Shown: in pieces, positions 13,852 to 48,271 of the stretch | Numbering within the stretch: position 1 is the first letter of the stretch | Layout: every line of letters begins with the position of its first letter | From: Bdellovibrionales bacterium | GTDB taxonomy: Bacteria; Bdellovibrionota; Bdellovibrionia; Bdellovibrionales; JAGQZY01 | Assembly (NCBI GenBank): GCA_031426555.1 | Contig: JANPLN010000023.1 | Coordinates: 214 to 64,213, forward strand | DNA: 64,000 nucleotides | Reading direction: 5' to 3' | Position numbers and translations under genes: made by a program | Notes under the pieces: generated by a model | The model's input: only the letters and a program-made list of their open reading frames with translations | Database searches by the model: none | Told to the model about the DNA's origin: nothing

Positions 13852-13931
<80 letters not shown>

Positions 13932-14427: not shown

Positions 14428-14847
14428 TTAATGATGATGAGTCGTCTCTTTCTTTTCTTTTACAATCTCATCAAATGCTTTTAAATCATAGCTAACGTCG
14501 ACTGATACACCGTCTCGGTTGGCTTTCAGATTCAGCTTTCCATCTTTTGGAGGAACGGCCTTTGTTTTACAGTGGTAATGGGTTCCTCCCATCACTGAGC
14601 AATCAAGTTTGATTTCTTCCTTAGATGTTTTTATAGATCCATCTAAGCTTGAGTTTTTTACCGTTGGATTTAATAAATTACCATCAAGTAGAAAAATATG
14701 AAATGATCCATCTTTGTCAGCAGCTACTTCGGTGTGAACATTTTTAGCCATCTCAATCTTTCCACCGTGGGGACCTGGTTTATCTTCACCATGTGCAAAC
14801 ACTTGTAATCCAGAAAAAAGAATTAAAAAGAATATAGAATTTTTCAT
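14428..14847 (-). CDS. Secreted small protein with predicted N-terminal His and C-terminal HHH (putative periplasmic metal-binding protein)
   Basis: Signal peptide ...LQVFA|HGEDKPGPHGG and C-terminal TTHHH. Paralogous to 24936-25388 (shared HG.P..GG start and the DGS/T-F/V-H/R-I/V-F/Y-L strand). Confidence 0.6.
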   Translation of the reverse strand: MKNSIFFLILFSGLQVFAHGEDKPGPHGGKIEMAKNVHTEVAADKDGSFHIFLLDGNLLNPTVKNSSLDGSIKTSKEEIKLDCSVMGGTHYHCKTKAVPPKDGKLNLKANRDGVSVDVSYDLKAFDEIVKEKKETTHHH

Positions 14848-14856
14848 AGCAGCTCC

Positions 14857-15615
14857 TTATTTTACAACTACAGAGAGAGGAATTGTTTTTAAAACACCAT
14901 CATCAATAAATTGAATCCACAACCGATATTCTCCAGCCAAGGGGAAGGTTGCATGTAGCATACCCATATTTGCGTCGTTACCCTCCATCGGGTGAACATG
15001 AATAAGGTCGTTTCCATTAAGTGGTGTCGCGATTACGTGAGCAAAAGCTCCCAGGTATGGAGAAAGACTAGGTGCTGTACCATCCGTTCTTGTTACCATA
15101 AAATCTATCATCGCCATTTTTCCAGCTTTGAGTTTTGTATTCGCAAGCTCTACTTGAGTTGTGCCATCTGCACCGACTCTTACATCACCAAGAGAGGTGA
15201 CTGGGATCTCCATCTCACCATTAACAACTACAACTGATCTACTTACAGAAAACTCTTTTCCATTTAACGTTTTTCCTTGCGCCCACACCTTATATGATCC
15301 ACTTACGGGAAGGTTCAATTCGACGTCCCAGGCCGTACCATTAAACTGAGGGTGCACATGGTTAAATTCGTTCAAAGAAGCGTCGTAAACCACGAGATGA
15401 AGAATTTTCGTATGTGTTTCGATTAGATCCATATCTGAAATCGATTTTGAAGTTTTATCATCCACGAGGTTAAACGAAAAATTGAGGCTTTCTGATGCAG
15501 AAAGAGTGGTTTGTGGGGTTTCGATTTGAACCCCGGCGAATGCAGAACCGCAAACTAGTAACCCTGTTAAAAATAATAATTTTCTCATATTCCCCCTTAT
15601 GTTGTTGAAACTCAT
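14857..15615 (-). CDS. Secreted protein with two tandem HVHP-motif domains (putative metal-binding, Ig-like)
   Basis: Signal peptide (the true start may be the internal MRKLLFL at 15588). An internal duplication carries NEFNHVHP...GSYKVWAQG in one copy and NDLIHVHP...GEYRLWIQF in the other. Confidence 0.55.
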   Translation of the reverse strand: MSFNNIRGNMRKLLFLTGLLVCGSAFAGVQIETPQTTLSASESLNFSFNLVDDKTSKSISDMDLIETHTKILHLVVYDASLNEFNHVHPQFNGTAWDVELNLPVSGSYKVWAQGKTLNGKEFSVSRSVVVVNGEMEIPVTSLGDVRVGADGTTQVELANTKLKAGKMAMIDFMVTRTDGTAPSLSPYLGAFAHVIATPLNGNDLIHVHPMEGNDANMGMLHATFPLAGEYRLWIQFIDDGVLKTIPLSVVVK

Positions 15616-15845
15616 CTGTTCTTTAGCATGAAGTCATGTAAGACGGACCTAAAAAGTAAACTCTGGCCGCTTAGCTAGACATTACTAGAAGCAACTACGT
15701 TCGCGCTATGCGTTTTGTGACAAACATCAACAAATAAAAAGAATAGTGTAATTATCCTAGAAATTTTAGGTATTTATGAAATATATTAACTTTCTGTCAC
15801 AACCGGCTTTGTCAATTCGTAGTACCAAGTGAGGATTATACTAAA

Positions 15846-16358
15846 GTGATTAAAAATAAAACTGACGAGGAACTTATGTTGGCCTACCAATTGGGTGATG
15901 AACTTGCTTTTATTGAGCTCTATGACCGTTACGCGAAAAAAATAAATGGATATTTAAGATCAAAGCTCATTAATGATTCCCAAGCGAATGACTTGCTTCA
16001 ATCGACCTACCTTAAACTTCACAAGAGCAAACATCTCTATAATTCGTCTCTCCCCTTTTCACCTTGGATTTTCACAATTTGTAGAAACGAACTCACTGAT
16101 TTTTTTCGCAGACAGAAGACTCTACATGAACCTTTCGATGAAGAACTCCTTGCTCCACAAACGCAATCTTATGATGAAGGTTCAGAAATTGATCTATCGA
16201 AACTTTCTCAAGAACAGCAAACCGCACTAAAGATGAGATATTATAACGATGCAACTTTTGAAGAGATCGCAAAGGCTCTTAGCACTTCCCCCGCCAACGC
16301 CCGACAAATTATTAGTCGCTCTTTAAAATATTTAAGAGGTTTTTATGAAAAACAGTAA
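15846..16358 (+). CDS. ECF-type RNA polymerase sigma-70 factor
   Basis: GTG start. Region 2 (FIELYDRY..., PWIFTICRNELTDFFR) and region 4 (LSQEQQTALKMRYYNDATFEEIAKALSTSPANARQIISRSLKYLR). Confidence 0.85.
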   Translation: MIKNKTDEELMLAYQLGDELAFIELYDRYAKKINGYLRSKLINDSQANDLLQSTYLKLHKSKHLYNSSLPFSPWIFTICRNELTDFFRRQKTLHEPFDEELLAPQTQSYDEGSEIDLSKLSQEQQTALKMRYYNDATFEEIAKALSTSPANARQIISRSLKYLRGFYEKQ

Positions 16359-16887
16359 AAAGACAAATTGGGAATCTGAGTTTGCAGAATTTTTAAAATC
16401 GGAACCCGTTGAAGTACCTCACAAGGTCACTGAAACGATAATTTCCAAAATCCAAAAGGAACTTAATCCTTCATTCTTGCAAGTATTCGGAAAAATTTCC
16501 TCTATCCATCTAATCATTGGCCTAGTTACTTTAATGTTTTGTCCACAATTTGATATTTCGATCACATCTCAAGTCGGACTTGTTCCGTACCTTATGCAAT
16601 TTGGACACGAGGTGTGCACTTTTGGCTGTGGAGCAATTTTTGTAGGAACAAGTCTATTAGCTTCTAGCTTTTACCTGAAACCTGAAGAAGTAAAAGTCTT
16701 AAAAAGACATGAACTTTTACAGCTCCTTGTTCTGTCTTCCCTTTCACTTGGATTTTTTGTTGCTCTTGGAGCAGAGGTCGTCTTATCACTCGGCATCATC
16801 TGGCTTGCTGGAGCTACTCTTGGTGGAATTTTATCACTCAATCTAGGATGGACTCTTCGTCGCCTTCAGTACAGAGAAGCTCTATGA
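16345..16887 (+). CDS. Putative membrane anti-sigma factor
   Basis: Overlaps the sigma gene by 14 nt. It has a short cytoplasmic N-terminus followed by about 4 TM helices. The call rests on position only. Confidence 0.45.
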   Translation: MKNSKKTNWESEFAEFLKSEPVEVPHKVTETIISKIQKELNPSFLQVFGKISSIHLIIGLVTLMFCPQFDISITSQVGLVPYLMQFGHEVCTFGCGAIFVGTSLLASSFYLKPEEVKVLKRHELLQLLVLSSLSLGFFVALGAEVVLSLGIIWLAGATLGGILSLNLGWTLRRLQYREAL

Positions 16888-17510
16888 AATATATAATCTA
16901 TTTGATTGTAATTTTAAACGCATCCGTTGCTTTTGCTCATCCGGTTTCTTTTAAAGATGCAACTGCTGTGATGACATGGAATCAGTCTTTTATGACTGAT
17001 AACTGGATCACCTACAGTTTTCACCCCAAAATGGCCGTCGCGGCTCGTACAATGCGCCTAGAGATGCCCGAAGGCCGCATGGACTACTACGCGCCTCAAT
17101 TTGATTTCTTAGTAAAAAGGTGGAACGAGACAAATTCACAGGCAAATATTTATATCTACGGATCTTACGGCGTCGCTCACTTTTTAAATCAAACGGATCG
17201 CGCCTCTCAAGTCGGAGTGGAAGTAGATGCAGAATCCAGGAAGTATTATATTTCAGTCCAATATGATAAAATGTGGACTCCTATCGGGCCCGATATGGAT
17301 ATCCTGAAAGCTAGGCTAGGAATCGCGCCGTACGAGGCAGAATTTAATGAAGTTGCAAGTTGGTTTATGATTCAATATCAACGACATCCAACGCTTGTAA
17401 AACAACATGTTGTTACTCCACTAGTTAGAATCTTCTACAAAAGCTTTCTTTTTGAAGGTGGAGTGAGCACCGACGGCGACTGGATGACGAATTTTATGTT
17501 TCACTTTTAA
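16884..17510 (+). CDS. Secreted protein, probable OM beta-barrel, predicted mature N-terminal His
   Basis: ATG at 16884 overlaps the upstream stop (ATGA). Signal peptide ...SVAFA|HPVSFKD, beta-rich, C-terminal F (MFHF). Confidence 0.5.
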   Translation: MKYIIYLIVILNASVAFAHPVSFKDATAVMTWNQSFMTDNWITYSFHPKMAVAARTMRLEMPEGRMDYYAPQFDFLVKRWNETNSQANIYIYGSYGVAHFLNQTDRASQVGVEVDAESRKYYISVQYDKMWTPIGPDMDILKARLGIAPYEAEFNEVASWFMIQYQRHPTLVKQHVVTPLVRIFYKSFLFEGGVSTDGDWMTNFMFHF

Positions 17511-17530: not shown

Positions 17531-17818
17531 ATGAAATTAACAATGATGACTCTGATTTTAACGATTGCAAACTTGGCTTTTGCAGTCGAGAAAAACATCA
17601 CCGTTAGTGTAAAAGGAATGGTCTGTGCATTTTGCGCACAAGGTATCACGAAAAAATTTAACTCTGAACCAGCAGTTTCCAAAGTGGACGTGAGTCTTGA
17701 GAAAAAAATCGTAAAACTGTCTCTTAAAGAAGGACAGGATATTCCAGATACTAAAATTGAAGGAGTTCTTAAAGATTCAGGTTTTAACGTAGAAAAAATT
17801 AGCAGAGATGAAAAATGA
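17531..17818 (+). CDS. Periplasmic heavy-metal-associated (HMA) domain protein, MerP-like
   Basis: Signal peptide followed by GMVCAFCAQGI (GMxCxxC). Confidence 0.8.
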   Translation: MKLTMMTLILTIANLAFAVEKNITVSVKGMVCAFCAQGITKKFNSEPAVSKVDVSLEKKIVKLSLKEGQDIPDTKIEGVLKDSGFNVEKISRDEK

Positions 17819-18180: not shown

Positions 18181-20391
18181 ATGCAGAAATTATTTTTTTA
18201 CTCATTTTTTTTAATTTTTTCTTTCACTCAGAATGCTTTTGCTAAAACTGTTCAATATGAACTCTCAGCATCACAACAATCGGTAAACTTAAGCGGAAAA
18301 CGTAAGATAGACTTCGCTATCTCTCTCAATAACCAAATTCCAGCACCAACATTATCATTCACAGAAGGTGATGAAGCTGAAATTAAAATCATCAACAATT
18401 TAGATCAAGAACTGTCTATCCACTGGCATGGCATTCTTCTGCCTCCAGAGATGGATGGTGTTCCTTATGTGACAACAGCTCCGATCAAAGCCGGTAAGTC
18501 TTTTACATTCAAGTTTAAGATCCGCCAAAACGGCACCTACTGGTACCATTCTCACACAGGACTCCAAGAACAAAAGGGAGTGTATGGAGCCATTGTTATT
18601 CACCCGCAAAAACAAAAAATAAAAGTCGACAAAGATGTGACTGTCGTCCTCAGCGATTGGTCCGACGAAAATCCCGATCAAATTTTAAAAAATCTGAGAA
18701 AAGATGGTGATTATTATCTCTATAAAAAAGGCACCATTCGCTCGTGGTATGGAGCCATTAGCCAAGGTGAAGGTGCTTTGGGGCGCTTTTTATATAACGA
18801 ATGGACCCGTATGGGTGGAATGGACCTTTCGGATGTTGGCTACGATGCTTTTCTCATCAATGGGATGCGCGATGTTCAACTCGTGGAAGGACACCCTGGG
18901 GAACGTATTAGATTAAGAATTATTAATGCCGGAGCCTCGTCATACTTTTTCGTCTCTCTTGCCAACCTGCCATTCACTGTTGTGTCTGCTGACGGCATTG
19001 ATATAGAACCATTAAACTCCAAAGAATTACTTCTAGGCATGGCCGAGACCTACGATATTGTTTTTACCATCCCTGAGCATAAAAATTTTGAACTAAAAGC
19101 CACAGCGCAAGACGGTACGGGTACAGCATCTGGTTGGATCGGCATGGGGGAAAAAGTCTTCGCCCTGAACAAGCCAAAACCCGATCAGTATGCATCGATG
19201 GAGCATACAAATCACGGAAGTGCGCACGCTACAGATCAAAAGATGAGCCACGATGAGCACTCGATGAACCATGAAGCACATACTTCTGACAAAGAACAGC
19301 CACAAACAGATCATAAAAACCACTCCCCTCCTTCGGAACATACACAGCACGATACTCATCAGAAAAGTGTTGCGGTCGCTGTAAATCAATTCGCTCATTT
19401 GCCGACACTGGAATCGTTGACGGTAGACGATATTAAGTCTCGCGAAACCACTCTGTTTGATGCCAATACTCCAGTGCATGACGTAAAGCTCGTTCTCGGT
19501 GGGGATATGTCTCGCTACATTTGGTTTATAAACGGGAAAACGATTCAAGAAGATAGAAATATAATCATTAAAGAAAATGATGTTGTCCGGTTTACATTGG
19601 AGAATCAGACAATGATGCATCATCCGATGCATCTTCACGGGCACTTTTTCCGAGTTGTAAATAAATTCAAAGAAAAATCTCCACTCAAGCATACAGTAGA
19701 TGTTCCTCCTCACCAGACGAGAACGATTGAGTTTTTAGCGAACGAACCCGGGGAATGGATGCTCCATTGCCATAATCTCTATCACCTCAAAACTGGAATG
19801 GCTCGCGTAGTAAAATATTCCTCATTTACGCCAAAACCGGAAATCGCTAAATGGCAAAAAGATGATCCACACAACCACGATCATTGGTACAATTATGGAC
19901 TCCTCGAAACTTCTTCGAATCATGCACAAGGATATTTTAGTCTTTCGCAGACATGGAATCAGTTTGAGGCAAGGGTTGAAACTGCAAATATTCAGAATAA
20001 GCAGTTTGCTTTTGAGGGGCGAAATTGGGATTACGAAGTAGATCTTTTTTATCGACGCTGGTTGAACAGATATTTCAATGTCATCGCTGGTGGAACGAAC
20101 TATGGTGAAGAAAATAAAGCTGTCATAGGCGTTGGCTACCTACTTCCCTTTCTAGTTCGAACAAACTTGCTCATTAATAACTCTGGTAAAATAAGGATTG
20201 ACGTTGATAAGCGGTTCCAATGGACCAAAACCGTTTTTACTGATGTTGAATACAGCTTACGACCGAACCAGAATGGCGAACACGAATCAGAACTCGAGGT
20301 TTCTTTGATGTATTCGCCAAAGTGGTCATGGGCTGCTGGCCTTATGCTTACTAATGACAGTCTCGGTGGCGGCGTTGAAATCCAGTTTTAA
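18181..20391 (+). CDS. Multicopper oxidase (CopA/PcoA-like) fused to a C-terminal CopB/PcoB-like outer-membrane domain
   Basis: MCO copper sites HWHG, WYHSH, HPMHLHGH and HCHNLYHLKTGM. A His/Met-rich linker. The last ~180 aa (HDHWYNYGLLE...YFNVIAGG...GVGYLLPF...GGGVEIQF) parallels the PcoB barrel pattern and ends in F. Confidence 0.75.
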   Translation: MQKLFFYSFFLIFSFTQNAFAKTVQYELSASQQSVNLSGKRKIDFAISLNNQIPAPTLSFTEGDEAEIKIINNLDQELSIHWHGILLPPEMDGVPYVTTAPIKAGKSFTFKFKIRQNGTYWYHSHTGLQEQKGVYGAIVIHPQKQKIKVDKDVTVVLSDWSDENPDQILKNLRKDGDYYLYKKGTIRSWYGAISQGEGALGRFLYNEWTRMGGMDLSDVGYDAFLINGMRDVQLVEGHPGERIRLRIINAGASSYFFVSLANLPFTVVSADGIDIEPLNSKELLLGMAETYDIVFTIPEHKNFELKATAQDGTGTASGWIGMGEKVFALNKPKPDQYASMEHTNHGSAHATDQKMSHDEHSMNHEAHTSDKEQPQTDHKNHSPPSEHTQHDTHQKSVAVAVNQFAHLPTLESLTVDDIKSRETTLFDANTPVHDVKLVLGGDMSRYIWFINGKTIQEDRNIIIKENDVVRFTLENQTMMHHPMHLHGHFFRVVNKFKEKSPLKHTVDVPPHQTRTIEFLANEPGEWMLHCHNLYHLKTGMARVVKYSSFTPKPEIAKWQKDDPHNHDHWYNYGLLETSSNHAQGYFSLSQTWNQFEARVETANIQNKQFAFEGRNWDYEVDLFYRRWLNRYFNVIAGGTNYGEENKAVIGVGYLLPFLVRTNLLINNSGKIRIDVDKRFQWTKTVFTDVEYSLRPNQNGEHESELEVSLMYSPKWSWAAGLMLTNDSLGGGVEIQF

Positions 20392-20465: not shown

Positions 20466-20765
20466 ATGGCTAAGCAAAAAACAACTCTCAAAGACCCCAA
20501 CACTCACCCCGACCACTCGGGTCAGAAAAGCCGTGTCAATCGCATCCGCGGTCAAATCGATGGAATCGAACGCATGATTGATGAGCGGAGATACTGTGTA
20601 GATATTGTTCAACAGATCAAAGCCGCTCGCTCGGCACTGACTGGGCTCGAAAACTCAATTATTGAAACTCATCTTCGAGGTTGTGTTCAAAGCGCAATGA
20701 CCTCGAAAGACGCTCACGATGCTGAACAAAAAATTCAGGAAATTATGAAAATCATGGCTAAATAG
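20466..20765 (+). CDS. csoR: CsoR-family copper-sensing transcriptional repressor
   Basis: [23 protein letters not shown]...ETHLRGCV carries the C-H-C ligand pattern of CsoR. Confidence 0.85.
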
Positions 20766-23637: not shown

Positions 23638-24888
23638 CTACTGTATTTCACTTTTACTTAACAAATGGCCTCTGGTTATATAAAAATCTCTTAACATTTC
23701 ATTATATTTTGTTTTTACTTCTAAAAGTTTATCTACAGATCCAAGAACATCGGGGGAGTTTTTCACTCCTCTAGAGTATTCATTCAATGTCAACTTTAGA
23801 TAATCTTGAGCTCGCTTTATGTTTTCTTCAGCATCGTGAATTTGCCGATGCAGAAAATTTAAAGAAGCAATTTCAGAATGGGCTTCATTTTCAATTTCAC
23901 GCTCTAAATATTTTGCTTCCGACTTAGAACTTTCAGATTCTGCATAAAGAGCCGCGGCCTCTTTGTTGCCTGTTGTAAAATCAAATAAATTCATTGTGGC
24001 TCTTATGCCTACGACAGTCTCTTTACCCTCTTGAGGTCCGAATACATTACCATTTCTGACGTTGTACTGATTTAAAGCAACAAAACCATCTATTCTTGGC
24101 CACCATGAGCGCGACTGCATTTTTGCAGACAATTCGTTTTCTTCAGCTTGAACCAAGTGGGGTTTGGCTAAAAACTGATGTTGAATCTCAGAGTGATTAT
24201 TCACTTTTTCCATTCCTTCAAAATGATCCATATTATCTGCTAAAGAAACTTTAGAGTCTTCTTCATAGCCAATCAAATTTAGCAATTCTCTTTTTAAAAT
24301 CTCTTTTTGCATATTCAAATGTTCAGAAGCGCGTTTTAATTCAGTATCTTTGATCTGAAACTCATAAAGATCTGCGCGTGTGGTTAGACCTGTTTTAACT
24401 CGCCTTTCGGCAGAGGTCAGATTTGATAAATTAATTCTTTTTATTTCATCCAACAAAACCACAGTTTTATCTATATAAACCAAATTCCAATAGGTCTCTT
24501 TGGCCTTTATGATCTCGTGATAGAGGGCAACTTTTTGCTCAGATTCGCTGCGAACTTTTCGTTTATTCACAATTTTATTATTCAAACTGTCTCTTGTTCC
24601 GTTAAACAAATTCACACTTATCTCGCCACCATAAGTTGGCTGAGTTCTTGTGTAATTATCACCAAGTTGAAAACGCTCATGCGCCCCATACAGTTTTAAA
24701 TTAGGGAAAAAAGATCTTTTTAAGAATCCTTGTCGATGTGACATAGCTTTAGTCTGATGGCTTTTACTAATAACACGTTCATTTTGACTCTCAACTAATG
24801 ATTTTAAATCTTTAACCTTCAAATTAAGTTCAGTTTGAGAATGAGCGTATTGCGAAACGAAAAATGTAATCCAAAAAAATAATTTCAT
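23638..24888 (-). CDS. TolC-family outer-membrane efflux protein (CusC/CzcC-like)
   Basis: 416 aa, signal peptide, two repeated coiled-coil/barrel halves typical of the OEP family. Confidence 0.75.
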   Translation of the reverse strand: MKLFFWITFFVSQYAHSQTELNLKVKDLKSLVESQNERVISKSHQTKAMSHRQGFLKRSFFPNLKLYGAHERFQLGDNYTRTQPTYGGEISVNLFNGTRDSLNNKIVNKRKVRSESEQKVALYHEIIKAKETYWNLVYIDKTVVLLDEIKRINLSNLTSAERRVKTGLTTRADLYEFQIKDTELKRASEHLNMQKEILKRELLNLIGYEEDSKVSLADNMDHFEGMEKVNNHSEIQHQFLAKPHLVQAEENELSAKMQSRSWWPRIDGFVALNQYNVRNGNVFGPQEGKETVVGIRATMNLFDFTTGNKEAAALYAESESSKSEAKYLEREIENEAHSEIASLNFLHRQIHDAEENIKRAQDYLKLTLNEYSRGVKNSPDVLGSVDKLLEVKTKYNEMLRDFYITRGHLLSKSEIQ

Positions 24889-24935: not shown

Positions 24936-25388
24936 TTAATCTAGATTGTCAAAAGCAGTGAGCAGTTCTTTACTCCCATCTTTCAAAACAACATCAATAT
25001 TGTAAGGTTTTGATTCTGGCTTTGGCATTTTTCCAGAAAAAATTCCATCTTTGGCGTCAAGAGCAAAATTTGTTGATACCCACTTACCTTTGACCTTTGA
25101 TGCTAAAGAGGCTGATGCCTGAGGCGAAAAGTTTTTTATATCTAATGCAAACATCTTTTCATTGTATAAGTAGACTCTGACAGTTCCATCTGTAGAGCGA
25201 ACTAACTCTGCCTTGTAAACTAACGCAGCTTTTGATCCAATCTTTGCGTCTTGTTTTTGAACGACGGCAGATACAAGGCCGCCATACTTACCCGTATCGG
25301 CAAGCTTTGGTCCGTGGCCTTCATCGTGCGCATTCGCCAATCCTAAAAATCCTATTGTTATTGCGATTAAAACTAATCTCTTTTTCAT
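24936..25388 (-). CDS. Small periplasmic protein with predicted N-terminal His, translationally coupled to the RND pump
   Basis: ATG 25388 overlaps the cusA-like stop (ATGA). Signal peptide ...GLANA|HDEGHGPKLADTGKYGG. Paralog of 14428-14847. Confidence 0.6.
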   Translation of the reverse strand: MKKRLVLIAITIGFLGLANAHDEGHGPKLADTGKYGGLVSAVVQKQDAKIGSKAALVYKAELVRSTDGTVRVYLYNEKMFALDIKNFSPQASASLASKVKGKWVSTNFALDAKDGIFSGKMPKPESKPYNIDVVLKDGSKELLTAFDNLD

Positions 25389-28300
25389 TTCCACTCTCCT
25401 TCGTTTGTTTGGTTTTGTTGTTTCATATAATTAATAAATGCTTTTTTGCCGAATTTAAGAAATATAGTGGGTGTCACCACAAGATCTAATAGGGTTGACG
25501 ATATCAGCCCACCTACAATCACAACTGCAACCGGATAAAGAATTTCTTTTCCTGGTTCTCCCTTGGATAATAGCAGAGGTACTAACGCAAGGGCTGCGGT
25601 AGAAGCTGTCATTAAGACGGGTACAAGTCTTTCTAATGATCCTCGAATTACCATTTGCGCATTAAACTCTTCACCTTCTTCTTTCATCAGATGAAGGTAG
25701 TGGCTAATCAGTAAAATTCCATTTCGACTTGCAATTCCACAAAGGGTGATGAATGCCACAAGCGTTGCGATTGAAAGTGTTCTCTCAGTCAGATAAATTG
25801 CAATAATACTTCCAATCACTGCCAAAGGTACATTCATCATAACCTGAAGACTAAGAATAGCTGATCTAAAATGAATATAGAGAACCAAAAATATCCCAAG
25901 TAAAGATAAAAGACCTAACCAAAAAATCCGTTTTGATGCGTTTTGCTGGCTTTCAAATTGACCGCCAATTTTAATAAAATATCCTTCTGGCAATTTAACT
26001 TTGTCTGCAATTACTTTTTGAATTTCACTGACAATTGTACCAAGGTCTCTCCCTTGGGTATTTGCAGAAACAACTATTCGTCTTTGCATGTCTTCACGAT
26101 TGATCATGTTGGGGCCTGTCCCTTCGTAAACATTAGCTACATCTTGAAGTAATACTGGTTTTCCTGTGGGCATATATTTAATCAGAGTTTGATTGATCTT
26201 TTCAGTTGTTGCTCGTGACTCATCATCAAGCCTCATAAAAACGTCATGGATTCTTTGATTTTCTAAAAATTGCGAGGCGACCTCACCATTAAGTGCTATT
26301 TCTAAATCTTCTGCCAGTGTTCCTGCTCTGATCCCAAACTGATTTCCACTTTCTCGATCAATGGTTATTTTTAATTGCGGAATAAGAACCAAGGGCTCGG
26401 TTTGAAGGTCTACTACTCCATTTACACTTTTCATGGCATCAAAAATTTCACCACCATAACGCCTAAGTTCACCTAGATCAGGACCAAATATTTTAACAGC
26501 AATTTGAGCTCTCACACCAGATAGTAAGTGATCTAACCTATGGCTTATAGGTTGACCCAAGTTTACATATACATCCCCAGTTTTTTCAATGCGCTCGCGT
26601 ATTTCTGGCAACACCACATGCATAGGTCGGCCTTCGGCCTTAAAGTCCACATCAATTTCACTCCAATGAACTCCTTCGGCGTGTTCGTCCATTTCTGCAC
26701 GACCCGTGCGACGTACTGTTGATTTCACTTCAGGAACTGAAAGAATGGCTTTTTCAATTTCTGCTCCTAATTTATCAGAGGCAGAAAGTGAAATACCAGG
26801 TGCCGCTGCGACTCCAATTGTGGCTGTACCTTCGTTAAAGTCCGGCAAAAAGTTTCTTCCCATGAAAGGCAACAGTGCTAATGAAAATAACAAAAGCAGT
26901 CCCGCTCCTAGCAAAACAATTTTTGGTCGAGGCAAAGTATAATGAAGTATCACTAAGGCTTTGGCTTTTAAAAATCGAACTAAAGGGCCATCTTTGTCGT
27001 GTCCTACGGCTTTTGAAGAGGGTAGTAAAAACGAGCATAAGATAGGCGTCACTGTTAGCGACACAAATAGGGATGCAATGATCGAGATTATATAAGCAAT
27101 ACCTAGAGGCGCAAACAAACGACCTTCTATTCCTCCTAATGCAAAAAGGGGAATAAAAACAAGAACTACAATTATGGTTGATAAAACGATTGAATTTCGT
27201 ACCTCTGATGAGGCCTCATAAATAACCCTCAAGTTTCCTTTGGGTGAACCTAATGCTCGATTCTCTTTTAGTCTTCTAAAAACATTTTCAACATCAACAA
27301 TGGCATCATCCACCAATTCACCAATGGCGATAGCTATCCCACCAAGTGTCATGGTGTTGATACCAAGCCCCATGATTTGGAATACTATCGCCGTCACCAG
27401 AAGGCTTAAGGGGATGGCAACCAGAGTGATTCCCGTTGTACGAAAGTTCATAAGAAACAAAAAAAGAATTATCGCGACCATGATAATTCCATCGCGCAAA
27501 GCTTCTTCGACATTCCCAATGGCTGATTCAATAAAGTGTGACTGTTTAAATAAATCTGTTTCTAAGTGAACACCTTGAGGTAAAGTTTTTTGAGCCTCGA
27601 TGAGTTCTTTATCAATGGCCTTTGTAAGATCTATTGTGCTTGCAGAGGGTTGCTTTTGAACGGTCATTATGACGGAGTGTTTGGCATTTATACTGCCTTC
27701 TCCTCGCTTAGTCTTTGCGCCTATACGTACTTGGGCCACATCTTTAACTAAAACGGGTTTGCCAAAGTGCATGCCGACAAAGGAATTCTCTATATCCTCT
27801 AAACTGGCAACTCTGCCAATGGGTCGAATTAAGAATTCCTTGTCGTTAATATCAATAAAACCACCGGTTGTGTTTTCACTGATTTCAGTGATCGCATGTT
27901 TTAAATCCTCTAAAGATATATTTTTGGCTTGAAGTTTTTGGCTTGAAATTAAGATTTGATACTGCTTAACTTCTCCACCCATAACTATAACTTGGCTTAC
28001 CCCAGGTATTGTCATCAGCCGGGGTCTTAAGGTCCAATCTGCTAATGTTCGCAAATCCATAGAAGATGTTTGTCCATTAGGACTTGTTACACCTACGAAC
28101 TGAATTTCACCCATGATTGAAGTCACAGGTCCCATCACGGGTTGCATGCCAGGTGGTAATCTATTTTGGACGAGTTGCAATCTTTCTGCTACGAGCTGGC
28201 GATTTTTAAAGATCTCTGTGCCCCAATCGAACTCTACATAAACTATAGATACACCTATGCCACTGCTTGATCGCGTTCTTAAAACGCCGGGTGTTCCATT

Positions 28301-28519
28301 TAGAACACTTTCTACTGGAAGTGTGACAAGTGTCTCCACCTCTTCTGGGGCAAGCCCATGGGCTTCAGTGAGCACGGTCACGGTTGGTCTATTTAGATTA
28401 GGAAACACGTCTACAGGTAGATTGGGCACCAACCAAGCCCCATACAAACAAATAGCTATTGAAAATATAACCATTGTCAGACGGTGTTTTAAAGAAAACC
28501 TTATTATTAAGTTCAGCAT
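25385..28519 (-). CDS. cusA: Heavy-metal efflux RND transporter, CusA/CzcA family
   Basis: 1044 aa, 12-TM RND topology with two large periplasmic loops, N-terminal MLNLIIRFSLKHRL... typical of HME-RND. Confidence 0.85.
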   Translation of the reverse strand: MLNLIIRFSLKHRLTMVIFSIAICLYGAWLVPNLPVDVFPNLNRPTVTVLTEAHGLAPEEVETLVTLPVESVLNGTPGVLRTRSSSGIGVSIVYVEFDWGTEIFKNRQLVAERLQLVQNRLPPGMQPVMGPVTSIMGEIQFVGVTSPNGQTSSMDLRTLADWTLRPRLMTIPGVSQVIVMGGEVKQYQILISSQKLQAKNISLEDLKHAITEISENTTGGFIDINDKEFLIRPIGRVASLEDIENSFVGMHFGKPVLVKDVAQVRIGAKTKRGEGSINAKHSVIMTVQKQPSASTIDLTKAIDKELIEAQKTLPQGVHLETDLFKQSHFIESAIGNVEEALRDGIIMVAIILFLFLMNFRTTGITLVAIPLSLLVTAIVFQIMGLGINTMTLGGIAIAIGELVDDAIVDVENVFRRLKENRALGSPKGNLRVIYEASSEVRNSIVLSTIIVVLVFIPLFALGGIEGRLFAPLGIAYIISIIASLFVSLTVTPILCSFLLPSSKAVGHDKDGPLVRFLKAKALVILHYTLPRPKIVLLGAGLLLLFSLALLPFMGRNFLPDFNEGTATIGVAAAPGISLSASDKLGAEIEKAILSVPEVKSTVRRTGRAEMDEHAEGVHWSEIDVDFKAEGRPMHVVLPEIRERIEKTGDVYVNLGQPISHRLDHLLSGVRAQIAVKIFGPDLGELRRYGGEIFDAMKSVNGVVDLQTEPLVLIPQLKITIDRESGNQFGIRAGTLAEDLEIALNGEVASQFLENQRIHDVFMRLDDESRATTEKINQTLIKYMPTGKPVLLQDVANVYEGTGPNMINREDMQRRIVVSANTQGRDLGTIVSEIQKVIADKVKLPEGYFIKIGGQFESQQNASKRIFWLGLLSLLGIFLVLYIHFRSAILSLQVMMNVPLAVIGSIIAIYLTERTLSIATLVAFITLCGIASRNGILLISHYLHLMKEEGEEFNAQMVIRGSLERLVPVLMTASTAALALVPLLLSKGEPGKEILYPVAVVIVGGLISSTLLDLVVTPTIFLKFGKKAFINYMKQQNQTNEGEWK

Positions 28520-40206: not shown

Positions 40207-40926
40207 ATGAGCCTAGCTGGTTCTATCGAACAAAAGATTAGCCAACTATCACCAGGAGAGGTGTTCTCTTCTAGTCAGCTTAAACTCATTAGCACTGCGG
40301 GAGCACGCCAAGCTATTTCAAGATTAGAAAAAAAAGGTCTCATTCAAAGATTAGATGGTATTCAAAGTCTCTATTATATTCCTAAAAAAGGAATACTTGG
40401 CGACATTAAGCCAACCAGAGGTCAAATTATAGAGGCCATCATCAATGGGCGAAAAAAAGGCTACCGTACAGGTCTTAGCCTCTACAACATGATGGGCCTC
40501 ACAACCCAAGTCCCTGGCTCTGTGACCATAGCTACTGAAGCTACCCCACAAAGTACGACCGTAGCAGGATTAGAAATAAAGTTTGTTAAAGCTAAAGGTC
40601 CTATCACTGAGGAGTCTATCCCACTTTTGCAAATCCTAGATGTTATTAGTGATTTAAAAGATATTCCCGACACAACACCCGACATGGTTTTCACAAAAAT
40701 AATTAAAACAATTAAAAACTTAGAAGAAAAACCCATGAAGTTATTAACGACACTGGCTTTGAAGTATCCTAAAAGAGTTCAGGCTCTTGTGGGAGCAACG
40801 TTTGAATTTCTAAAGGAAGATGAACTTGCTACAAAGATAAGAAAAAATCTAAACTTAGGCTCAGCTTACAACATCGGAATAAGCGAATCATTACTTCCAA
40901 ATAAATCCAACTGGAATATCCTATGA
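40207..40926 (+). CDS. abiEi: AbiEi-like type IV toxin-antitoxin antitoxin (wHTH, DUF6088-like)
   Basis: N-terminal GARQAISRLEKKGLIQRL..LYYIP wHTH. 4-nt overlap with the downstream AbiEii gene. Confidence 0.7.
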   Translation: MSLAGSIEQKISQLSPGEVFSSSQLKLISTAGARQAISRLEKKGLIQRLDGIQSLYYIPKKGILGDIKPTRGQIIEAIINGRKKGYRTGLSLYNMMGLTTQVPGSVTIATEATPQSTTVAGLEIKFVKAKGPITEESIPLLQILDVISDLKDIPDTTPDMVFTKIIKTIKNLEEKPMKLLTTLALKYPKRVQALVGATFEFLKEDELATKIRKNLNLGSAYNIGISESLLPNKSNWNIL

Positions 40927-41792
40927 AGCTACACGAACATAAAGAAAATTTTATTGAACTAATCCAAAACACTAGCTCTGCACTTGGAATTCAAGATATT
41001 TTTATAGAAAAAGATTACTGGGTAACATACGTTTTAAAAAATCTCACCTCATGGGACAAAAACAAGACGATTGTTTTTAAGGGTGGAACTTCTTTATCTA
41101 AAGCCTACAAACTTATTGATAGATTCTCTGAGGACATAGATTTAGTTCTGAAAGATACGACCTTAAATGGCAACCAAATTAAAACAGCTATCACCAACGC
41201 GCAAAAAAGCTGTGTTCAGCTACCTCTTAAAGAGGTAGAAGCTGATAGGACCTCTAAGGGATCAAGAATTAGAAAAGTTGATTGTTCCTACCCGCAAATA
41301 TTGGATGAGTATCAGTTCGGTGATGCAAGCGACAAATTACTTATTGAGGTTAATTCTTTTTCAAAACCATTTCCAGTGGTTGAAAAAACAATTGGTTCTT
41401 ATGTTTTCCAAATGTTACAGGACTTAGAAAGAACAGATCTCATTGAAAAATTCGAACTTAAGCCTTTCACGATAGAGGTACTAGACTTTAAACAAACATT
41501 TTGTGAAAAAATAATGAGTCTACTTCGTATAAGCCAAAAGAATGATGCCAAGGAGCAGTTAAGAAAAAAGATTCGTCACTTTTACGACATCAGTAAACTC
41601 GTCAGCGATTCAGAAATTCTAAATTTTATTAAATCAAAAGAGTTTTCTGATTCTTTAAAGAATATTTACAAAAACGATTTGTTAAATCCAGAGTTTCAAC
41701 AAGATTGGACAATGACAGATGTTTCTAACATAAATCTTATTGCAAACTTTGATTCACTATTTGATGAACTAGAACCGACGTTCAAGGGATAA
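40923..41792 (+). CDS. abiEii: AbiEii/AbiGii-family nucleotidyltransferase toxin
   Basis: IVFKGGTSLSKAYKLIDRFSEDIDLV is the family signature. Confidence 0.8.
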   Translation: MKLHEHKENFIELIQNTSSALGIQDIFIEKDYWVTYVLKNLTSWDKNKTIVFKGGTSLSKAYKLIDRFSEDIDLVLKDTTLNGNQIKTAITNAQKSCVQLPLKEVEADRTSKGSRIRKVDCSYPQILDEYQFGDASDKLLIEVNSFSKPFPVVEKTIGSYVFQMLQDLERTDLIEKFELKPFTIEVLDFKQTFCEKIMSLLRISQKNDAKEQLRKKIRHFYDISKLVSDSEILNFIKSKEFSDSLKNIYKNDLLNPEFQQDWTMTDVSNINLIANFDSLFDELEPTFKG

Positions 41793-47170: not shown

Positions 47171-48271
47171 ATGGCAATCAGACTTTATACACTAAACGAA
47201 AAACGACTATGGGAAGTACAAGTCAGCGGAACAGACGCGCTAGGAAATCGTCTGCAAAGACGACGACGCGGTTTTGAAACCCGTCGAGCGGCTGAGAAGT
47301 TTGAATTCGAACTAAAACGCGAACTCAGAATGATCAAAGATACGGCCATACCACCTCGATGGGGTGAATGGCTTCCTGTCTGTCTAGAACGGATGAAGCT
47401 TGTACACAGACCGTCTACGGTTGAAAACTACTCAAGAACATTAGGCAAGTGGGTCACACCATCTTGGAAAGATAAAGATTTAACAGACATCTCAAAAGCT
47501 GATGTTTACTCATTAGTTTATGAATCTTTAAATCCTGAACTTTCCCCGTGGTCTAAAAAAACAATTCTAAAGTTCATAAAAAGGATTTTACAAATGGCAG
47601 TCGAAGAAGGAATTCTTGCAAGAAATCCTTCTGTAGGAGTCAAAGTTACTGTTCCTGAAACTGATCAAAAAGTTTTAACGAATAGTGAAGTTGAAATTTT
47701 CCTAAAAGAAGCCAAAGCTTACAATCACAGATTTTATCCTATATGGGTCATGGCCCTATTAACTGGAATGAGATCAGGTGAAATGTATGCATTGAAATGG
47801 TCTGACGTAGATTTTGACGTTGGGATCATTACTGTAAAAAGACAATGGACGAGCAAGAATGGTTTTGGACCCACTAAAACCCAACGCAGTAGGGTTGTTC
47901 CTATTGCAGAGGATTTGTCTAAGTTTTTAAAGGAACTGAAACTTAAAAATGACGGAAGTGAATATGTGCTTCCCCAATTGCCTGAATGGACCCAAGGGGC
48001 TCAAGCTGAGGTCACCAGAGAGTTTTGTGAGGCCATCCAAATCACGTCGATTAAGTTCCATGATTTGAGGGCTACGTTTATCACAAACTTACTGACCCGA
48101 GGCGAAACGCTAGCACGAGTGATGTCTATAGTTGGCCACAGCCAGATTAAAACCACGAATGTTTACCTCAGAAAAGCTGGGATTGATGTTCAAGGGGCTA
48201 CTGACAAACTTGGATATGGCGTCCCACAGGGCATTTCAGGACAAGTTATCCCTTTAAAAACCAAGGGTTAG
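47171..48271 (+). CDS. int: Tyrosine site-specific recombinase (integrase)
   Basis: GMRSGEMYALKW (Arg box I), and HDLRATFITNLL...GHSQIKTTNVYLR (H-x-x-R ... H ... Y). Confidence 0.9.
   Translation: MAIRLYTLNEKRLWEVQVSGTDALGNRLQRRRRGFETRRAAEKFEFELKRELRMIKDTAIPPRWGEWLPVCLERMKLVHRPSTVENYSRTLGKWVTPSWKDKDLTDISKADVYSLVYESLNPELSPWSKKTILKFIKRILQMAVEEGILARNPSVGVKVTVPETDQKVLTNSEVEIFLKEAKAYNHRFYPIWVMALLTGMRSGEMYALKWSDVDFDVGIITVKRQWTSKNGFGPTKTQRSRVVPIAEDLSKFLKELKLKNDGSEYVLPQLPEWTQGAQAEVTREFCEAIQITSIKFHDLRATFITNLLTRGETLARVMSIVGHSQIKTTNVYLRKAGIDVQGATDKLGYGVPQGISGQVIPLKTKG

Follow-up and report, generated by a model that had tools for sequence, protein, structure and literature searches.

Three unannotated protein families with an invariant mature N-terminal histidine in a mobile metal module of a Bdellovibrionales bacterium

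A histidine that becomes residue 1 after removal of the signal peptide marks several copper- and nickel-binding proteins with immunoglobulin (Ig)-like folds, namely CopC, YcnI, DUF4198, DUF6702 and Ang-1/2, and the ‘signal-strapping’ families appear to pass their metal to membrane transporters (PMC12537917). We analyzed a 64,000-nucleotide stretch of a Bdellovibrionales bacterium (GenBank assembly GCA_031426555.1, contig JANPLN010000023.1, positions 214 to 64,213; hereafter, the window), in which a first-pass annotation made from the DNA letters had picked out three secreted proteins predicted to mature with histidine as residue 1. These proteins, here named A, B and C, lie within 11 kb of each other (contig C23) in the metal module of a genomic island (Table 1). 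At the level of sequence, a histidine directly behind the signal peptide is a proven mark of secreted proteins that bind metal, and here it points to three unannotated families, all encoded within copper and efflux operons of predatory bacteria. Computationally, there is strong evidence that this histidine is real and under selection in metal operons, and we consider A, B and C good candidates for new copper-handling families.

The open reading frames (ORFs) and their histidine codons proved to be as first described when checked in the sequence. Each of the three N-termini combines a basic residue with a hydrophobic core and an AxA-type c-region, and the cut (slash) falls at MKNSIFFLILFSGLQVFA/HGEDKPGPHGG in A (His codon CAT, 14793-14791), at MKKRLVLIAITIGFLGLANA/HDEGHGPK in B (CAC, 25328-25326) and at MKYIIYLIVILNASVAFA/HPVSFKD in C (CAT, 16938-16940); mature B thus begins HDEGHGPKLADTGKYGG. 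To test the cleavage site independently, we turned to conservation within each family and aligned 88 A-type, 49 B-type and 46 C-type sequences. In all three alignments, the entropy is about 3 bits at positions −8 to −4, position −3 is A, V, S or T, and position −1 is A, S or G, following the von Heijne rule in the 88, 49 and 46 sequences. At +1, the entropy is exactly 0.00, because this residue is histidine in every member (88/88, 49/49 and 46/46), and the conserved mature sequence begins right there, with HGEDKPGPHGG in A, HDEGHGPK in B and HPV in C. Another 29 C homologues, with identities as low as about 30%, follow the same pattern. Among 149 representatives of the A/B superfamily that were examined, 146 have a histidine past the hydrophobic region, and 138 of these have A, S or G directly before the first one.

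This conservation shows that A, B and C are Sec-exported and cut by signal peptidase I directly before the invariant histidine, so that a free α-amine and an imidazole would be presented together in the periplasm. The first-pass prediction of histidine as mature residue 1 therefore stands for all three proteins, and the alignments support absolute selection on His1 in all three families. A crude genome-wide screen also returned a small exported protein of 147 aa that is likewise predicted to mature with His, MKTLFTLLFVSFATTAHA/HHIQGHEMDHE, on the minus strand of another contig of the same assembly (G000 C30, start ~25741).

None of the three proteins matched a Pfam or NCBIfam family at E<=0.1. 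Scans of 183 family members (88 A-type, 49 B-type and 46 C-type) against the same libraries gave nothing above noise, and profile searches of PDB sequences with A, B and C returned chance matches only (E>=0.2). DUF6488 matches to family members were sub-threshold and fell mostly on the signal peptide. In the literature on Bdellovibrio copper efflux, we found nothing relevant. Close homologues number 29 for A and ~490 for B; nearly all of them come from Bdellovibrionales-type genomes and metagenomes, and they are named ‘hypothetical’. A joint A/B profile gathers 536 clusters at 50% identity; among 150 listed, the members are 74-185 residues long with no fusions to larger proteins. Of the 301 sampled genomes of the phylum, 81 carry an A/B member, and its occurrence is scattered among near relatives, which fits genes that travel as mobile cargo; the genome studied here has both of its superfamily copies on the island.

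The AlphaFold model of mature A (predicted local distance difference test, pLDDT, 83.5; pTM 0.75) is an all-β sandwich in which residues 1-11 form a coil, followed by nine strands and a short C-terminal helix before the His tail. Foldseek retrieved only generic Ig/filamin-type sandwiches for this model. Apo-CopC (8ytq_B) ranked sixth (TM 0.40/0.38, E 0.014), which is a weak and generic Ig-fold likeness, and the hidden Markov models (HMMs) of CopC (PF04234) and DUF1775 matched none of 137 A/B-type members (E<=0.01). These results agree with the earlier remark that A and B do not otherwise look like CopC. The invariant or near-invariant residues of A-type proteins are H1, G2, G7, P8, G10, G11, M15, H20, E22, D37, C65 and C75. 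By the strand pairing of the model (12-16 with 19-25), M15, H20 and E22 would lie on the same side of the first hairpin, and the invariant cysteines C65 and C75 would be cross-strand neighbors. Protein A does end in HHH, as first noticed (…TTHHH), and a His-rich tail is common to most of its family. In B-type proteins, the invariant residues are H1 and H5 of the mature protein (H21 and H25 of the precursor), G26, P27, a GG pair, E61 and the C-terminus LLxAFDNLD.

The first-pass annotation had called A and B clear paralogs, which our comparisons do not bear out. BLASTP aligned them with E=0.028 over just 33 residues, and each family's HMM scores the other at 1-7 bits. Profile-profile comparison (hhalign) gave a probability of 90% with the signal peptides included, a value that is inflated because the signal peptides were aligned; on mature sequences only, the probability was 28-72% (E 6e-4 to 3e-5). 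We nevertheless consider a remote kinship of A and B probable. Indirect support comes from another small exported protein, a third type that matches A strongly and B weakly. This third type occupies the slot between the RND pump and the outer-membrane factor (OMF) in operons that also carry an A-type gene, and matures as HEGH(D/N)xPGxLxAxHGG. On mature sequences, its hhalign probability is 96.5% with A (E 9e-10), pointing clearly to homology, and 58% with B (E 1e-4); it also has a sub-threshold match to the YtkA-like family (E 0.014). At least two, and probably three, N-terminal-His sandwich subfamilies thus appear to serve these pumps. As judged by profiles and by the model of A, there is an unannotated superfamily of Ig-like β-sandwiches of ~110-130 residues that includes A and the third type, and probably also B, and occurs mostly in Bdellovibrionota. 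One of the loci with a third-type gene (L002) also encodes, beside a third RND gene (16905-17443), a DUF6488 protein and a 58-aa anchored peptide (…AQEHGHSHGEGGEVEH…), which are further small His-rich RND partners in the phylum.

Both A and B belong to unannotated families that are tightly tied to metal-efflux genes, which is in line with part of the first-pass suggestion of an undescribed periplasmic copper-binding family. The ATG of B overlaps the TGA stop codon of the RND pump (ATGA), suggesting that B is translationally coupled to the pump. The order RND-B-OMF was kept in all loci with enough flanking sequence except one (L047); about 40 of the 55 loci show the pump and 53 of 55 the OMF. 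B-linked pumps are 69-93% identical to the window pump, so the partners of B appear to form one dedicated pump lineage. The pumps beside A-type genes are related ones (58-62% identity). A-type genes directly precede the pump gene or directly follow the OMF gene, and 16 of 22 A-type loci adjoin an RND/OMF operon and/or CsoR with a Cu-ATPase.

The chemistry of the partner pump is unlike that of CusA. The window pump aligns with E. coli CusA at 30% identity, and the CusA methionine triad M573/M623/M672 is replaced by G569/W619/H664. The G/W/H residues at the triad positions, together with H618, E621 and H664, were conserved in 35/35 B-linked pumps; E621 and H664 were also kept in 12/12 pumps linked to A or the third type (47 related pumps in all). 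Such a putative His/Glu site would suit partner proteins that themselves conserve His and Glu, and not Met, as candidate ligands.

Protein C is a different kind of molecule. Its AlphaFold model (pLDDT 89.5) has 12 antiparallel strands, and all significant Foldseek matches are outer-membrane barrels: KdgM (4pr7) is best (TM 0.50/0.58), and NanC (2wjq, TM 0.46) and the β-domains of autotransporters and intimin are also found, at 6-12% identity to the structural matches (6-8% for the KdgM/NanC comparison). The sequence ends in NFMFHF, a C-terminal signal typical of outer-membrane proteins (OMPs). Because of the model, the barrel matches and this C-terminus, we read C as an outer-membrane protein, confidently modeled as a 12-strand β-barrel, not as a soluble periplasmic one, and the first-pass suggestion of a periplasmic copper-binding family was not supported for C. 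The invariant features of C are the mature N-terminal His-Pro-Val, a penultimate histidine (M-x-H-aromatic in every homologue seen), and three methionines on the first and last strands (M30, M201 and M205). In a crude screen, none of 34 other OMP-like C-termini of this genome had a penultimate His. A barrel with an even number of strands has both of its termini on the periplasmic side, and its first and last strands are neighbors; the His-Pro-Val terminus and the penultimate His are therefore expected to lie close together there.

Homologues of C number ~320 close sequences, none of them annotated, and occur in 83 of the 301 genomes of the phylum. In 28 of 29 loci, an exported HMA protein and then a MerT-like membrane protein come next after C, and in most of them an extracytoplasmic function (ECF) sigma factor pair adjoins C. 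In the window, the ATG of C overlaps the stop codon of the presumed anti-sigma gene of this pair. The presumed anti-sigma protein had no family match in our scans; it carries conserved-looking Cys/His motifs (FCPQF and HEVCTFGCG) and may be what senses metal for the ECF pair. The chromosome of the same genome carries a diverged cassette (G000 C28:2886-5563) with a C-like barrel (HA/HPVTY…FMVHL), an exported HMA protein, a MerT-like protein and a CsoR-like protein, followed by a 351-aa membrane protein with a His-rich N-terminus.

The link to copper comes from the neighbors of A, B and C, which are a multicopper oxidase (MCO), a CopA-type ATPase and a CsoR with a Cys-His-Cys pattern. We favor, with more confidence than doubt, the reading that A and B are periplasmic copper chaperones and that C is an outer-membrane copper conduit. 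A, B and the third type would then act as periplasmic metallochaperones, functional analogues of CusF. The flexible, Gly/Pro/acid-rich N-terminal peptide ahead of the sandwich would be a capture peptide, and copper could be chelated by the amine and imidazole of His1 together with a further His, Glu or Met residue. Candidates for these further ligands, in mature numbering, are H9, H20, E22 and M15 in A, and H5 and E41 in B. From there the metal would pass to the partner pump, at the His/Glu site that the pump has instead of the methionine triad. C would be the outer-membrane member of a copper relay with the exported HMA protein and the MerT-like inner-membrane protein.

Two bolder proposals are speculative, and we hold both at low confidence. 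One is that Bdellovibrionota have a His-based periplasmic relay in place of the methionine-based Cus relay, such that the sandwich proteins capture copper, possibly as Cu(II) made by the neighboring MCO, through their N-terminal His chelate and pass it on to an RND pump with His/Glu where CusA has its Met triad, and that the small proteins hold the operon slot normally taken by CusF and the membrane-fusion adaptor. The other, separate from it, is that C forms a true histidine brace from its own termini, with His1 and the penultimate His meeting at the periplasmic mouth of the pore; this would be a brace at a transport gate, not in an enzyme or a soluble chaperone.

Several observations weigh against copper chaperones and a copper conduit, and some of them suggest other functions. 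In the model of A, residues 1-3, including His1, have a pLDDT below 50 (His1 is of low confidence in apo-state models of DUF4198, DUF6702 and Ang-1/2 as well; PMC12537917), and the proximity of a second ligand to His1 was read from strand pairing only. H9 of A is Asn in 23 of the 88 sequences, such that a second His is not universal, H20 aligns with Lys in B, and the kinship of A and B is itself weak. The ‘MerT-like’ label had no HMM match in Pfam and NCBIfam scans. Further, there is no gene for an HlyD-type adaptor (membrane-fusion protein, MFP) on the island, and the few MFP-like genes of the genome are on other contigs. Because of this missing gene, A and B could be structural parts of the pump rather than chaperones, replacing the adaptor by sealing or stabilizing a direct RND-OMF contact, with the His peptide as a docking element. 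B sits exactly at the adaptor/CusF slot with its coupled start, and other genomes have a single pump flanked by two such small proteins. We think such a structural role unlikely, however. MFP hexamers bridge the RND-OMF distance in tripartite pumps, as seen in the AcrAB-TolC and CusCBA structures, and a sandwich of ~110-130 residues without an α-hairpin cannot span that distance. In addition, the invariant residues of A and B are classic metal ligands (His1, His5/His20 and Glu), and an adaptor for the pump could be supplied in trans by the MFP genes on other contigs.

The identity of the metal is a second point of doubt for the copper chaperones. DUF4198 and DUF6702, which also have an N-terminal His, prefer Ni (PMC12537917). 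Because the window pump lacks a methionine site and has His and Glu at or beside the positions of M573, M623 and M672, its substrate may not be Cu(I) but instead Cu(II), Zn, Ni or Co, and the N-terminal-His proteins might bind a non-copper divalent metal (Zn, Ni or Co) on behalf of an RND pump for divalent cations. Many B loci also have no other copper gene nearby, be it MCO, CopA or CsoR; one has a ferroportin-like gene and another a chromate transporter. In contrast, MCO, CopA-type ATPase and Cys-His-Cys CsoR genes neighbor the island proteins and most A-type loci, and the motif in the fourth transmembrane segment of the window pump, AIGx3DDAx3VEN, is without the first Asp of DFGx3DGAx3VEN, which is the divalent CzcA-type motif in the classification of heavy-metal efflux (HME)-RND pumps. 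A non-copper function is improbable in our judgment. Finally, His1 could have no ligand role at all and be a by-product of sequence constraints, such as the signal-peptidase context or folding, with the three cases on the island a coincidence. Some isolated cases are to be expected, since His is found at +1 in ~2.5% of 1300 signal-peptide-like ORFs in the whole 3.1-Mb genome (by a crude heuristic). Yet the +1 position of signal-peptidase sites tolerates most residues, and the histidine is invariant in three unrelated folds and hundreds of sequences while the flanking signal peptides vary freely. As A, B and C are all embedded in metal-handling operons as well, we give this explanation almost no credence.

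Table 1. Features of the metal module and its surroundings. Positions refer to the window unless a locus (L) is named.
Feature	Position	Strand	Remarks
tRNA-Pro	13852-13928		left end of the low-GC block
Protein A, 139 aa	14428..14847	−	signal peptide residues 1-18 (14847-14794); mature start HGEDKPGPHGG
Secreted protein, 252 aa	14857..15615	−	two HVHP motifs; just upstream of A, same operon
ECF sigma factor	15846-16358	+	upstream of C
Multi-pass membrane protein, presumed anti-sigma	16345-16887	+	read from position and membrane segments only
Protein C, 208 aa	16884..17510	+	signal peptide residues 1-18 (16884-16937); mature start HPV
Exported HMA protein, MerP/CopZ-like	17531-17818	+	motif GMVCAFCAQG
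Membrane protein, 120 aa	17815-18177	+	CC motif; MerT-like by eye only
Multicopper oxidase	18181-20391		C-terminal extension of ~190 residues; OMP-like end GVEIQF
CsoR-family repressor	20466..20765	+	Pfam Trns_repr_metal; Cys-His-Cys pattern typical of Cu(I) sensors
Outer-membrane factor (TolC-like)	23638..24888	−	downstream of B
Protein B, 150 aa	24936..25388	−	signal peptide residues 1-20 (25388-25329)
RND pump, CusA/CzcA family	25385..28519	−	TIGR00914, 776 bits; partner of B
AbiEii toxin gene	40923-41792		inside the low-GC block
Tyrosine integrase	47171-48271		near the right end of the low-GC block
Third type, small exported protein	L002 6066-6455; L092 6363-6761; L094 6333-6740; L105 5989-6390; L106 11572-11961		

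The island is a low-GC block at ~14-48 kb of the window (GC ~37-43% vs. 46-48% in the flanks). It has tRNA-Pro and the integrase at its ends and type IV secretion genes between them (a TraC/VirB4-like ATPase, a coupling protein and TrbI), and by this gene content it is an integrative conjugative element (window 13852-48271). The metal module lies in its left arm and is therefore the cargo of the element. The module runs from A through the 252-aa secreted protein, the ECF sigma factor, the presumed anti-sigma protein, C, the exported HMA protein, the small Cys-Cys membrane protein, MCO and CsoR to the CopA-type P-type ATPase, the OMF, B and the CusA/CzcA-family pump, and ends with a His-rich protein of 128 aa. 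The same module was found at 96-99% amino-acid identity in a genome of a different family of the same phylum (L088, G069:C7:18948-35310), where it comprises A, the 252-aa protein, the ECF sigma pair, C, the HMA and MerT-like proteins, MCO, CsoR and the ATPase. This near-identity points to very recent horizontal transfer, and as genomes of different families share the element in nearly identical form, the module appears to spread as a unit.

Some neighbors recur with the same partners elsewhere. The 252-aa HVHP protein, which had no family match in Pfam and NCBIfam scans, accompanies A-type genes and RND operons in other genomes, either before or after RND-OMF (L002, L027, L075, L097 and L102). 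CsoR homologues adjoin A-type/RND operons in other genomes, and homologous MCOs of ~706 aa are present in related loci. The C-terminal extension of the window MCO had no match in a Pfam scan; a relationship between this extension and C was considered and rejected (BLASTP E 0.31).

If metal binding is confirmed, A and B would represent a new chaperone fold for RND metal pumps. Their partners would have a pump site made of His and Glu instead of Met, which bears on the oxidation state in which copper is exported, and C would add a barrel of the outer membrane that bears a His pair at its termini and is linked to MerP/MerT-like proteins.

By profile, none of A, B and C is a member of CopC, CusF, DUF4198/DUF6702, KdgM or CopB, although each resembles some of them. 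Like A and B, CopC/PcoC and YcnI are Sec-exported proteins of copper loci with a conserved His as mature residue 1, and they are β-sandwich proteins, as A is by its model. The Cu(II) site of CopC consists of His1 (amine and imidazole), a conserved Asp and a second His at one end of the β-barrel, and histidine-brace proteins in general chelate copper with NH2 and Nδ of His1 and Nε of a second His; of these features, A, B and C show the N-terminal His, and H9, H20 and E22 are conserved candidate partners for it in A. In CopC, however, His1 is at the start of strand 1, whereas in the model of A it is carried on an 11-residue flexible peptide; the partner of CopC/YcnI is CopD/YcnJ, whereas that of A and B is an RND pump. 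DUF4198, DUF6702, Ang-1 and Ang-2 also resemble A in having a secreted Ig-like domain with a conserved His1. The DUF4198 and DUF6702 HMMs did not match A or B, their partners are HupE/UreJ permeases rather than RND pumps, and they are found in different taxa.

Compared with the E. coli CusCFBA locus, B resembles CusF as a small exported protein inside an HME-RND operon, beside the OMF and the pump, and the role of CusF in feeding periplasmic metal to the pump is presumed for B too. Yet the CusF Pfam family matched neither A and B nor their family members, and CusF is a small OB-type barrel, whereas A is modeled as a nine-strand Ig-like sandwich. CusF binds metal through His36, Met47, Met49 and Trp44, whereas the candidate ligands of A and B are the N-terminal His and Glu. 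The Cus system couples a Met-triad pump to the CusB adaptor; the pump of B has no such triad, and its island no such adaptor gene.

For C, the likeness to KdgM/NanC lies in the modeled 12-strand outer-membrane barrel, and that to CopB/PcoB in an outer-membrane barrel within a copper-resistance locus. The KdgM and CopB (PF05275) profiles matched neither C nor its 46 family members, and the long Met/His-rich N-terminal region of CopB/PcoB is absent from C. Features of C alone are the invariant N-terminal His-Pro-Val, the penultimate His and the fixed HMA/MerT-like cassette, usually with an ECF sigma factor nearby. This cassette recalls MerP-MerT, in that behind the gene of an exported HMA protein comes that of a ~120-aa membrane protein whose first helix holds a Cys-Cys pair. 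The exported HMA protein scored 34.5 bits against the MerP HMM, far below the cut-off of 92.6; unlike the mercury pair, the cassette is without MerA and MerR, includes the barrel C, and has CsoR as its neighboring regulator. Thus, A, B and C would work like known kinds of proteins, as metallochaperones and a copper-locus barrel, but with new folds or ligand sets and with new partners.

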